In this document: positions 33,787 through 63,489 of the stretch, piece after piece
Position numbering within the stretch: the stretch's first letter is position 1
Layout: every line of letters starts with the position of its first letter
Virus record (IMG/VR): IMGVR_UViG_2788500300_000002
Span: 34,321-98,320 of that record
DNA: 64,000 nucleotides
Direction: 5' to 3' (one strand)
Origin: a virus
The notes under the pieces: model-generated
The model's database searches: none
What the model saw: only the letters and a program-made list of their open reading frames with translations
What the model was told of the DNA's origin: nothing
Made by a program: the position numbers and the translations under genes

Positions 33787-34362
33787 GAATTACATACACC
33801 TATTGGGACGCAAACGGGCGCGAGTACTTCGTCCAGCGCGCGCCCGTCAGTGGATATGGCGTCTACTCCGCTATCGGACGGCGGACGCCTAAGCCGGAGG
33901 TGACGGAGACTTTCGACACGGCAGAAGAAGCACAGGCGCGGCTCGACCAGCTCGCGATGGAGCTAAAACTATGCGCTGCGTAGAGTGCCGGTACTTTCAC
34001 CGTCTCGACCTGCACACGTCGCCCGCGCGCGTCGTATGTGCTAAAAGCGTTTTAGTCGGCAACGATGTAGACGTGCGGCGCGGTTGCGGGATTGGAAAAC
34101 TTAAGTCAAGGGGTGCTGCGGTCTGGAAGCCGGGCGGCGGCACGTCGTGGAACAGAGCATAAGGAGGAATCATGATGTTAGAAATTACGCCGGAACTAAT
34201 AGAAGTTGTAAATAGCACAACTCTTAGGTTGAGAAAGGCCATTCGCTTAGATAAAGAGCTTTTAACGAAGGAAGAATATGAAGAGTACGCCCCAATTTTA
34301 ATAGAGCTTGTCGATGTGCTTGTACTTTGTTCGATGGCCAAATTTGTCCGCGGAGAAACAAA

Positions 34363-60964: not shown

Positions 60965-61534
60965 ATGAGCATACCGATGGACGTTGTTTATGTGCCGGAC
61001 GAGTACGGCAATCTAATCCAGACCAGGGTCCCGACCGCAATCGGCTTCCCGACGTGGTTCGCTGGCCCGGAAATCCCGGAGGGCTATCTCTACTGCGACG
61101 GCAGCGAGGTCAACCGCAACGTGTACAAGGAGCTCTTTGCCGCCATAGGCACCACGTGGGGAGCCGGGGATGGTGCGGATACGTTCAACATCCCTGACCT
61201 CAGAGGCATCTTTGTGCGCGGCGACGGCGGGGAGAACAATGCGGATTTGGGAGTGAGGCAGGGTGATGCAATACGGAACATTAAGGGACGGTTGTTTGAT
61301 TATCTATGGCAAGATGTAAACGGTGGTGATGTACCGATATTATCAGCATCTAACAATGGTTGCTTTGGCAACAATACAACTGACACGAATGAAGCGCGAA
61401 GTGTAGCGAACCCAAATACAATCAAATTAACCGGTTATGACGGAATTTTGTTTGACGCTTCGCGTGTTGTCCCCACCGCCGCCGAGAACCGCCCCGTAAA
61501 TGTCGCGTTAAGACCCTGCATCAGATACGTATAG
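60965..61534 (+). CDS. Tail-collar-domain protein, paralogue 1
   Basis: PEGYLYCDGS...ELFAAIGT.WG.GDG..TFNIPDLRG; C-terminal RPVNVA...CIRY. Confidence 0.85.
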   Translation: MSIPMDVVYVPDEYGNLIQTRVPTAIGFPTWFAGPEIPEGYLYCDGSEVNRNVYKELFAAIGTTWGAGDGADTFNIPDLRGIFVRGDGGENNADLGVRQGDAIRNIKGRLFDYLWQDVNGGDVPILSASNNGCFGNNTTDTNEARSVANPNTIKLTGYDGILFDASRVVPTAAENRPVNVALRPCIRYV

Positions 61535-61548
61535 GAGGAAACAAAACA

Positions 61549-61593
61549 ATGACAGTTAGTATATGCAAACGGGGGGGGGGCGCTCCTCCATAG
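61549..61593 (+). promoter_or_regulatory. Leader ORF 1 with G10 tract (MTVSICKRGGGAPP*)
   Basis: RBS AGGAGG, ATG 61549, G10 at 61571-61580. Confidence 0.6.
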
Positions 61594-61640
61594 GACGCAA
61601 CATATAGTTAACATATCCCGCGCGCGGAGGGCGGACTGAG

Positions 61641-62231
61641 ATGCCGGACATCGAGAGCTACGGCGTTGACGAATATGGCCAGTCCTCGGGCGTCAGATCC
61701 AGATCGCGCGTGGGTGACATCGTTTTCTCGCCGCGAGCCACCCCGCGCGCTGGCACGCTGGTCTGCGACGGCTCTGCTGTGTCTCGACAGACGTATAAGG
61801 AGCTGTTTGACTTCCTCGGCGTTTCCTGCGGCGCAGGAGATGGCGAGACTACGTTTAACTTGCCCGACCTACGCGACGTATGGATACTCTGCGCTGGGAC
61901 GGAGCACGAGGCGGGGGACCGTGTCGCGGAGGGGCTGCCAAATTTGACAGGACAAATACAAGCACGTAATTATTCCAACAACTCAGGCTCGCCAATGCCG
62001 CCCAATAACATTGTGGATAGTGGAGTTTATAATGGCGCAGGGTTAATATCCACAGAATTCCAATCAGGGGATGAATGGGGAGACGTTTTGAGCACGGGCA
62101 CCAGCAACACAACCGGGCAAAGGACTACTGTGTTGAGGTTTAACGCACAAAACGACAATGACATCTACGGCGCATCCGACCACGTAACGCCCAAAAGCGT
62201 GGTGTTGACGCCGTGCATAATCTACGAGTAG
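61641..62231 (+). CDS. Tail-collar-domain protein, paralogue 2
   Basis: GTLVCDGS..SRQTYKELF...GDGETTFNLPDLR; C-terminal YGASDHVTP...CIIYE. Confidence 0.85.
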   Translation: MPDIESYGVDEYGQSSGVRSRSRVGDIVFSPRATPRAGTLVCDGSAVSRQTYKELFDFLGVSCGAGDGETTFNLPDLRDVWILCAGTEHEAGDRVAEGLPNLTGQIQARNYSNNSGSPMPPNNIVDSGVYNGAGLISTEFQSGDEWGDVLSTGTSNTTGQRTTVLRFNAQNDNDIYGASDHVTPKSVVLTPCIIYE

Positions 62232-62248
62232 ATAGGAGATATTGAACA

Positions 62249-62305
62249 ATGATACAGCATACACGCAGAAAGTGTACACGGGGGGGGGCAATCCTCCCTA
62301 GTTAG
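62249..62305 (+). promoter_or_regulatory. Leader ORF 2 with G9 tract (MIQHTRRKCTRGGAILPS*)
   Basis: RBS AGGAG, ATG 62249, G9 at 62280-62288. Confidence 0.6.
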
Positions 62306-62347
62306 TAGTCATATAGTAGCCATTTCGCCGCTCTCAGGGAGTGCTGC

Positions 62348-62881
62348 ATGATGGCCCGCGTCAGAGAGTACGGCGTCGACGAGACCGGCGCGCCGAGCAG
62401 CGTACTGCTGGGCTGCGCGATAGGCGACATCATCCCGCACTTCGGCAGCACGCCGCCGCCTGGGACGCTCGTTTGCGACGGCTCGGAAATCTCGCGCGAG
62501 ACCTACCACGAGCTTTATGAGGAGATAGGCGCGCTCTGCGGGCCGGGCGACGGCTCTACGACGTTTAATTTGCCAGACCTGCGCGGGCGGTGGATGGTGG
62601 GCGCTGACACAGAACGCGGTGCGGGCGAAGAGGTAGCGGAGGGGCTGCCGGACATCGTTGGTACAGTTGGATGGGTCAACGACAATTTGTTTACCGTGGC
62701 AAGTGGCGCTTTTTCTGGCGTGCCAGGCAAAAACGACTACGGAGTTATTGCGCAACCGACTTCGAACACGACTCTGTCTAGAGTGAACTTCAACGCTTCA
62801 GCGTCTAACCCTACCTACGGTGCATCCAACCACGTCACGCCCGCGAGCGTGGCAATTTTGCCATGCATCGTTTACGAGTAA
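62348..62881 (+). CDS. Tail-collar-domain protein, paralogue 3
   Basis: GTLVCDGSEISRETY...GDGSTTFNLPDLRG; YGASNHVTP...CIVYE. Confidence 0.85.
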   Translation: MMARVREYGVDETGAPSSVLLGCAIGDIIPHFGSTPPPGTLVCDGSEISRETYHELYEEIGALCGPGDGSTTFNLPDLRGRWMVGADTERGAGEEVAEGLPDIVGTVGWVNDNLFTVASGAFSGVPGKNDYGVIAQPTSNTTLSRVNFNASASNPTYGASNHVTPASVAILPCIVYE

Positions 62882-62903
62882 TAATCACAGGAGGACACAT
62901 ACA

Positions 62904-62939
62904 ATGTTAGCATACTGTAAGTATATACGGGGGGGGTAG
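62904..62939 (+). promoter_or_regulatory. Leader ORF 3 with G8 tract (MLAYCKYIRGG*)
   Basis: RBS AGGAGG, ATG 62904, G8 at 62929-62936. Confidence 0.6.
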
Positions 62940-62982
62940 TCCTCCCCAGTAGTCATCTCTTTGTTGCCGCGGAGGACGCAAG

Positions 62983-63489
62983 ATGATTGGCGTCAGGAGT
63001 GGCATCAATGAGTATGGCCAGCCATCGAAGTTCATACTCTCTGGCTATGTTGGCGAGTTCAAGTATTTCGGTTTCGAGAGCGTTCCGCCGCACTGCCTTG
63101 CCTGTGACGGCAGCGAGGTAAGTCGTGAGACGTACAGCGAGCTTTTCGCGGTGTTCGGCACGATGTATGGGGCCGGTAACGGGACTACGACGTTCAACTT
63201 GCCGGATTTCCGTGGCGCGTTTTTGCGTTGTGTCGGCGGCAATGCAGCTAATTTAGGAGTATTGCAAGATGCTACTCTCGTTGGTCAATATTGTCTTGGC
63301 AACAATGGTTCCCAAATTGCACTTGCTGTGTACCAACGAGATAGCGAAGGGACGCTTCCAAGGGCAAATACATCATACTCATATACACCAATGGGGTATA
63401 TACCACAAAGTGAAATTGTAAGCGGAAATATTGGGTGGACATCTCGGCCACTCAACTATGCAGTCAACATCTGCGTAGTCTACGAATAA
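62983..63489 (+). CDS. Tail-collar-domain protein, paralogue 4
   Basis: CLACDGSEVSRETYSELF...GNGTTTFNLPDFRG; RPLNYAVNICVVYE. Confidence 0.85.
   Translation: MIGVRSGINEYGQPSKFILSGYVGEFKYFGFESVPPHCLACDGSEVSRETYSELFAVFGTMYGAGNGTTTFNLPDFRGAFLRCVGGNAANLGVLQDATLVGQYCLGNNGSQIALAVYQRDSEGTLPRANTSYSYTPMGYIPQSEIVSGNIGWTSRPLNYAVNICVVYE

Follow-up and report, generated by a model that had tools for sequence, protein, structure and literature searches.

In Streptococcus gallolyticus, a slippage-prone repeat in the leader-peptide gene of the pil1 and pil3 loci sets how far the ribosome travels; as set out in excerpts of Danne et al. (2014; PMC3894217), the ribosome destabilizes a downstream stem-loop and the operon is turned ON. 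Here we describe leader elements in a 64,000-nucleotide stretch of viral DNA (positions 34,321 to 98,320 of the IMG/VR record IMGVR_UViG_2788500300_000002; hereafter, the window), in which three tail-collar cassettes of a prophage each stand behind a small leader open reading frame (ORF). Each leader contains a tract of G residues followed, 3–4 nt later, by a pyrimidine segment that includes CCUCC, here called the block. As in the pil1 excerpts, a simple-sequence repeat inside a small leader ORF alters the frame and length of the leader. So far as these excerpts go, the pil1 repeat is GCAGA and its stem-loop is an intrinsic transcription terminator, whereas here the repeat is a G run and the leaders hold no terminator. 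Also unlike pil1 as there described, it is on the start codon downstream that the ON frame ends, and the repeat itself takes part in the conserved hairpin.

Hypermutable polyG tracts are present in receptor-binding genes of the Campylobacter Fletchervirus (Sorensen et al. 2021, as cited in bioRxiv 10.1101/2025.10.21.683753). On the terms of that secondary citation, the two systems are alike in that phage G runs of 7–11 diversify which receptor-binding proteins are made. They differ in that the Fletchervirus tracts lie within the receptor-binding genes, whereas here the tract occupies a separate leader ORF of 10–18 codons upstream of an intact gene. Within the compass of the same source, the tract is inside the gene in the phage contingency loci described so far.

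The closest analogue acting in trans is the RepG–tlpB pair, in which a C/U-rich RNA pairs with a hypermutable homopolymeric G repeat in an mRNA leader. A similar pairing is predicted here, with the difference that the pyrimidine partner is not a small RNA and lies in cis, 3–4 nt from the tract. Repeat length grades the regulation by RepG, whereas here the predicted openness of the cassette Shine–Dalgarno (SD) sequence is flat from 6 to 14 G and the output would be set by the frame. Translational coupling through an occluded ribosome-binding site (RBS) is classical, for example in MS2 coat–replicase and in many operons. The present units share with it an upstream ORF that terminates at ATGA, TGATG or an adjacent stop and a downstream SD with a predicted tendency to be structured, which the passage of a ribosome would open; they differ in that coupling is conditional on a hypermutable tract and that the SDs of the window units are predicted to be only half closed. 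In translational attenuation of the ermC type, a leader peptide is combined with hairpins that are mutually alternative, and one of these conceals the SD downstream. Unlike in that system, no inducer-dependent stalling is implied here, and the SD-hiding helix proposed for these leaders is not the alternative that is predicted to be stable.

Tract length and reading frame of the leaders

Sequence comparisons give good support to the reading of the leaders as frame-dependent gates coupled to the start of the cassette. The tracts lie within RBS-led ORFs of 11–18 codons, which are separate from the intact tail-collar ORFs and 46–60 nt upstream of them. When tract lengths of 5 to 13 G were enumerated, one length class in three was found to carry the leader frame across the block, the spacer and the cassette SD to a TGA at the cassette start. 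In the window units, 1 nt separates this readthrough TGA from the cassette ATG, or the two overlap (stop positions of −4, +1 and +1). With the other two length classes, the leader frame terminates 33–50 nt upstream of the cassette start, either at the block or immediately behind it. At the sequenced tract length, the window units are all three OFF; the third tract has 8 G, not 7.

Eighteen units were curated from five genomes: the genome to which the window belongs, a congener (G002) and three further genomes of the same family. In 18 of the 18, one frame and no other terminates between −4 and +8 relative to the start of the cassette, and their native state is mixed, five being ON. Copies that are about 95% identical differ in tract length; the two prophage copies of genome G076 (L072:6243, and L073 at 6325 on the minus strand), similar to about this extent around the unit, differ in that one has G10 and the other G11.

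Between the leaders and their cassettes, no intrinsic terminator was detected; the only two hits lie elsewhere and are at the level expected from shuffled sequence. The hairpin formed by the tract has no U tail. A reading of the leaders as transcription terminators was ruled out, as there is no terminator-like site in them.

The design is shared by many unrelated phage contigs. IMG/VR was scanned for the pattern AGGAGG–ATG–short ORF–G8 and the matches were clustered, which gave 39 distinct units, the own and related units included. The block is a real and conserved part of what is apparently an undescribed class of phage switches. In at least 28 further IMG/VR clusters (L098, L102, L110, L131, L152, L159 and others), one frame stops on the downstream start, with ATGA, TGATG or an adjacent stop, and in many of these clusters the SD is immediately preceded by a small anti-SD hairpin.

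A scan of IMG/VR for ACG8-N3-7-CCTCC returned mostly terminator-like or unrelated sites, together with one clear additional unit (L280) and an ssb-associated family. In this viral family (L208, L211, L213, L219 and about 15 more IMG/VR loci), G8–10 is followed by (T)CAAGA-CCTCC, AGAGGAG and GTGATG, and then by an ssb-like gene (MNKVILMGRLT..). It represents the poly-G plus CCTCC arrangement outside tail genes.

The pyrimidine block and its pairing partners

The placement of the block is clearly beyond chance. CCUCC is rarer than expected in the window (30 occurrences seen, 58 expected), yet it is found 3–4 nt after every tract. In seven aligned homologous units, the pyrimidine content of the six block columns is 100% and their identity 83%, compared with an identity of 61–65% for the spacer and SD zone. 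A stop codon lies directly behind the block, and block and stop together constitute the best-conserved element of the spacer. The distance from block to tract is constant (3–4 nt); that from block to SD ranges from about 15 to 38 nt. The 16S rRNA of the host ends in CACCUCCUUUCU, and the CCUCC block is therefore a literal copy of the anti-SD core.

The hairpin between tract and block is the minimum free energy (MFE) fold in all three window units (−12.0, −12.7 and −14.3 kcal/mol), in agreement with the alternative pairing through a 4-nt loop put forward in a preliminary description of this DNA. It is also the sole consensus helix obtained with RNAalifold on the seven aligned units. The whole leaders fold no better than shuffled sequence (z of 0.38, 0.15 and −1.07). 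The potential for a hairpin between the tract and the next 20 nt is enriched relative to random 20-mers, with p = 4e-6 for the host-related group and p = 5e-4 for the unrelated viral units. Partition-function calculations on the full leader RNA of the window units give the block about 4–7 pairs with the tract and about 0 with the cassette SD. The SD is predicted to be about half open (unpaired probability, Pu, of 0.45–0.67), an outcome that the preliminary description itself had named as speaking against an RBS masked by the block. The same description had suggested that tract length sets the pairing balance. Partition-function folding with 6 to 14 G left the predicted SD openness unchanged in all three units, and a tract-length-dependent balance is thus ruled out in silico.

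The block:SD helix emerges in the predictions only on removal of the tract together with all RNA upstream of it, at 0.9 in unit 1 (U1), at 0.02–0.58 in unit 2 (U2) and at 0.19–0.72 in unit 3 (U3), varying with the stretch chosen for folding. When the tract alone is blocked, the block pairs with the SD of the leader itself in preference to that of the cassette.

The block and the cassette SD are complementary in each window unit, precisely as first described. In unit 1, CGCTCCTCC (61581–61589) and GGAGGGCG (61626–61633) form 8 bp with a bulged T, or 6 contiguous pairs; in unit 2, CTCCCT (62294–62299) and AGGGAG (62336–62341) form 6 bp; and in unit 3, GTCCTCC (62939–62945) and GGAGGAC (62971–62977) form 7 bp. 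This complementarity is modestly above what composition predicts (combined p of 0.03 with block shuffles and 0.005 with random 12-mers). The further claim, that the block co-varies with its own RBS, did not hold. With the SDs of units 1, 2 and 3, respectively, the RNAduplex energies are −15.1, −10.9 and −15.7 kcal/mol for the block of unit 1, −12.3, −10.6 and −10.6 for that of unit 2, and −15.6, −12.4 and −16.0 for that of unit 3. There is no diagonal preference in this matrix, and each block fits the SDs of the other cassettes about as well.

As the SD register differs from unit to unit in the alignment and the columns are not homologous, permutation tests on own-versus-other duplexes and helices were used in place of column-wise pair counting. 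No preference for the own SD was found when SDs were permuted among 10 unit classes from the five related genomes (p of 0.29 for energy and 0.35 for helix length), nor across the 39 clusters that include the IMG/VR phage contigs (p of 0.18). Some relatives have lost the SD match and retained the tract hairpin: V2 has CCCCCC opposite GGAGG, and X2 has UCCC opposite AGAGG. In C22u and C24u, where the tract hairpin is likewise retained, just 4 bp of the block:SD match are left (CUCC/GGAG).

The cassette SDs behind poly-G leaders are nevertheless predicted by folding to be more occluded than control SDs, with a partner that is lineage-specific and usually not the block. The median Pu(SD) is 0.51 for 114 control SDs from the same loci, 0.37 for the units as full leader RNA (p versus controls 4e-3) and 0.20 for the units with the tract removed (p versus controls 5e-6). 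The strongly masked units U4, V3, U5 and V4 (Pu(SD) of 0.00–0.23) use partners other than the block. The ATG of U4 and V3 is enclosed by a perfect 9-bp stem between the SD AAGGGAGGC and codons 2–4 (GCCUCCCUU); in U5 and V4, SD and start are inside a local hairpin with the sequence just upstream. The SD of cassette 3 also lies within a local imperfect hairpin (GCCGCTCTC / GAGTGCTGC), which is kept in both class-B relatives, and many viral units have an anti-SD of 4–5 bp a few nt upstream of the SD. Of the RBS-hiding attenuator initially proposed, the frame-dependent gating is supported and the SDs are predicted to be more structured than controls, but the hiding of the RBS by the block, with about 0 bp of block:SD pairing in the full leader RNA, is not supported.

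Roles of the block

We see about an even chance that the block is a clamp on the SD-like G tract, within a phase-variable, translationally coupled switch that precedes each spare tail-tip gene, and not a tailored mask of the RBS. The model, like all conclusions here, draws on sequence comparison and on predicted folds. Sequence comparison shows that the leader reading frame is set by slippage in the G tract. In two frames, the ribosome stops at the block or immediately behind it. In the third, it crosses the block, the spacer and the cassette SD and ends on the cassette start codon, where re-initiation is possible (translational coupling). The main partner of the block is predicted to be the G tract, in a G-C/G-U hairpin with a 3–4-nt loop, rather than the cassette SD, and the fit of the block to SD sequences is generic, not tracking its own cassette. 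The hairpin may keep the G run, a strong SD mimic, out of circulation; the predicted energy of pairing with the host 16S tail is −12.4 kcal/mol for the G run and −9.8 kcal/mol for AGGAGGA. The block would reach the cassette SD only briefly, once the hairpin has been melted by a leader ribosome and for as long as tract and leader SD are both occupied. Such transient masking of the SD might trim leaky re-initiation from the OFF frames, as a secondary effect at most.

Several points weigh against the clamp. Its purpose is one that we infer. Classes D and I have no block, so the switch can do without one. Most classes retain the U of CCUCC, and this U fits GGAGG better than a G run, for which C would be stronger. 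All structure results are equilibrium predictions for naked RNA, in which ribosomes, kinetics and proteins are ignored, and the results without the tract shift with the stretch chosen for folding. The two roles of the block cannot be fully separated in silico, because the G tract and the SD are both G-rich and any pyrimidine run fits both. In addition, U1 and V1, its homologue in G002, differ by one true compensatory change (U.G to A-U; CACCUC/GAGGUG), and U1, W1 and W4 adopt the block:SD helix as their MFE fold once the tract and upstream RNA are removed.

The last two points would suit a block that is a true cis anti-SD, clamping the cassette RBS unless a ribosome reads through, with the tract as a competing partner in a three-element attenuator. 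Removal of the tract and upstream RNA also makes the block:SD helix frequent in C17u, C22u and C24u; U5 has a specific 7-bp block:SD match; all three window units have helices of 6–8 bp, with the own-SD duplex energies given above (−15.1, −10.6 and −16.0 kcal/mol); and the cassette SDs of such units are generally more occluded than controls. We nevertheless consider a cis anti-SD unlikely, since there is no specificity for the own over other SDs, block:SD pairing is about 0 whenever the tract is present, and the leader SD outcompetes the cassette SD when the tract is blocked. In addition, V2, X2, C22u and C24u lose the match and keep the tract hairpin, and the tightly masked units use different partners.

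The preference for the leader SD raises another role, that of an anti-SD for the leader's own RBS, with the G tract as an anti-anti-SD that keeps the leader translatable. When the tract is forced to be unpaired, the block pairs with the leader SD over 5.9 bp in U1, 4.9 in U2, 7.0 in U3 and 5.5 in V2, and also in C18u, V1, V4 and W2; V2 combines a GGGGG leader SD with a CCCCCC block, and U4 pairs CUCUGUGGU with GUCACGGAG. The specificity seen on permutation over the 10 classes (p of 0.015) fades once stratified over the 39 clusters (p of 0.08 and 0.2), however, and the pairing is never populated while the tract is free. Moreover, any tract of at least 6 G suffices, so that tract length would not regulate, and we regard this role as very unlikely. 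Little probability is likewise attached to conservation of the block for the Pro-Pro-stop that it encodes in one OFF frame, as a stalled, hard-OFF state. A C-terminal Pro-Pro reportedly slows termination and triggers ribosome rescue (Hayes, Bose and Sauer 2002). An x-Pro-Pro-stop is found in U1 (APP-stop), in U2, U5, V4 and V2 (NPP-stop), in U3 (SPPQ-stop) and in C17u and C18u (RPPC-stop), and it is retained in V2, in which the block has changed from CCUCC to CCCCCC. V1, C22u/C24u, W1/W2 and W4, on the other hand, have no Pro-Pro, and in all seven aligned units the first Pro codon has only pyrimidines at its wobble position, a pattern that is better explained by pairing than by coding.

It is equally improbable, in our estimate, that the block acts in DNA, through a G-run/CCTCC hairpin that tunes slippage rates in single-stranded DNA, or that it has no function and was inherited with a duplicated leader module. 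The alignment shows the units to be paralogous copies of a single module, DNA can form the hairpin too, and tract lengths differ between copies that are about 95% identical; against this, the block is clearly better conserved than the surrounding spacer, and the hairpin potential recurs in unrelated viral units. Finally, the block may be a cis copy of the anti-SD of the ribosome that toggles among the G tract, the leader SD and the cassette SD. The slippage frame would decide where the leader ribosome frees it, and the three tract-length classes would be coupled ON, clamped OFF and Pro-Pro-stop stalled OFF. We hold such toggling to be quite unlikely; if true, it would be a slippage-programmed translational attenuator without a described counterpart.

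Genomic setting and significance

The prophage tail module consists, in order, of baseplate J, DUF2612, a fibre N-terminal gene, the four tail-collar cassettes and a tail-fibre-assembly-like gene. Cassette 1 (60965–61534) has no poly-G leader; cassettes 2 to 4 each stand behind a strong SD, an ATG and a 10–18-codon ORF holding G10, G9 or G8. The parts of the three units are listed in table 1.

Table 1. Positions in the window of the parts of the three poly-G leader units and of the tail-collar cassettes.
Feature	Position	Strand	Remarks
Four tandem stand-alone tail-collar (PF07484) cassettes	60965..63489	+	60965-61534, 61641-62231, 62348-62881, 62983-63489
Leader 1 SD, AGGAGG	61533..61538	+	Overlaps the TAG stop of the preceding cassette
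Leader ORF 1, MTVSICKRGGGAPP-stop; OFF as sequenced (G10)	61549..61593	+	With G9 or G12, extends to TGA 61637-61639
G tract 1, 10 G	61571..61580	+	
Post-tract block 1, CGCT-CCTCC: 4-nt loop and pyrimidine arm	61581..61589	+	Followed by TAG 61591-61593
Cassette 2 SD region, GGAGGGCG	61626..61633	+	Cassette ATG at 61641
Leader 2 SD, AGGAG	62234..62238	+	
Leader ORF 2, MIQHTRRKCTRGGAILPS-stop; OFF as sequenced (G9)	62249..62305	+	With G8 or G11, extends to TGA 62349-62351, overlapping the ATGATG start
G tract 2, 9 G	62280..62288	+	
Post-tract block 2, CAAT-CCTCCCT	62289..62299	+	Followed by stops TAG 62299-62301 and TAG 62303-62305
Cassette 3 SD, AGGGAG	62336..62341	+	Cassette ATG at 62348
Leader 3 SD, GGAGGAC	62890..62896	+	7-mer identical to the cassette 4 SD
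Leader ORF 3, MLAYCKYIRGG-stop; OFF as sequenced (G8)	62904..62939	+	With G9 or G6, extends to TGA 62984-62986 (ATGA overlap)
G tract 3, 8 G	62929..62936	+	
Post-tract block 3, TAGT-CCTCCCC	62937..62947	+	Second OFF stop, TAG, at 62950-62952
Cassette 4 SD, GGAGGAC	62971..62977	+	Cassette ATG at 62983
Pro-Pro then stop, directly or one codon on, in one OFF frame	61585-61593 (APP-stop), 62293-62301 (NPP-stop), 62941-62952 (SPPQ-stop)	+	

The leader peptides are recognizably homologous (M-x-T-x-R/C-N/K-V/C-x-R-G-G). Short palindromes (GTGTACAC, GTATAC, ATGCAT and ATGTACAT) adjoin many of the tracts, at 62270–62279 and before the tracts of L024:3967, L027:5679 and L027:6364.

The array runs on past the end of the window with two more units, and four small contigs of the same genome hold others. 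The two units just beyond the window end (L024:3946-4062 / L024:4600-4705 = G000:C12) have G7 and G10. The G7 unit has no CCUCC block and is natively ON, and its SD AAGGGAGGC forms a perfect 9-bp stem with codons 2–4 (GCCTCCCTT); the G10 unit has CCCTCCC opposite GGGAGGG. The contigs C18, C17, C22 and C24 (L025, L026, L080 and L081) of the same genome are very short and carry near-identical leader units with differing tracts (G11 versus G10; G9 versus G11). These precede a second, non-tail-collar family of tip genes (..GSNANGEWVRW..), which means that two cassette families share the same leader module.

The host genome is 2.9 Mb in size, with 57.9% G+C. It contains 20 G/C runs of at least 8, several of which are intergenic, outside the prophage and behind TGYAAAC-like words (e.g. 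C1:266047, C26:19047, C28:47009, C28:177073, C30:120007 and C27:213095); the host itself may use poly-G contingency loci. Protein searches with DUF2612, cassette 3 and the product of the fibre N-terminal gene, made to find close relatives in genome contigs and IMG/VR, gave distant loci or none, and nothing close to the locus was found among GenBank phages. Among sequencing runs, the window is present only in the probable source assembly, in the form of contigs, and no RNA run containing it is listed. Genome scans at the level of the order revealed classical in-frame poly-G genes in other families, and no leader units.

With the tailored anti-SD set aside, two general features remain: a stretch of pyrimidines predicted to fold back on the G run, and a predicted occlusion of the downstream SD by a partner that is lineage-specific. 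Leader-ORF switches with slippery repeats appear to be a common route by which phages randomize their receptor-binding tips (39 clusters), and the only relative of such switches known to have been dissected is the bacterial, terminator-based pil1. RNA elements that tighten the OFF state matter for the prediction of host-range heterogeneity from sequence, and for the reuse of the module as a stochastic switch.

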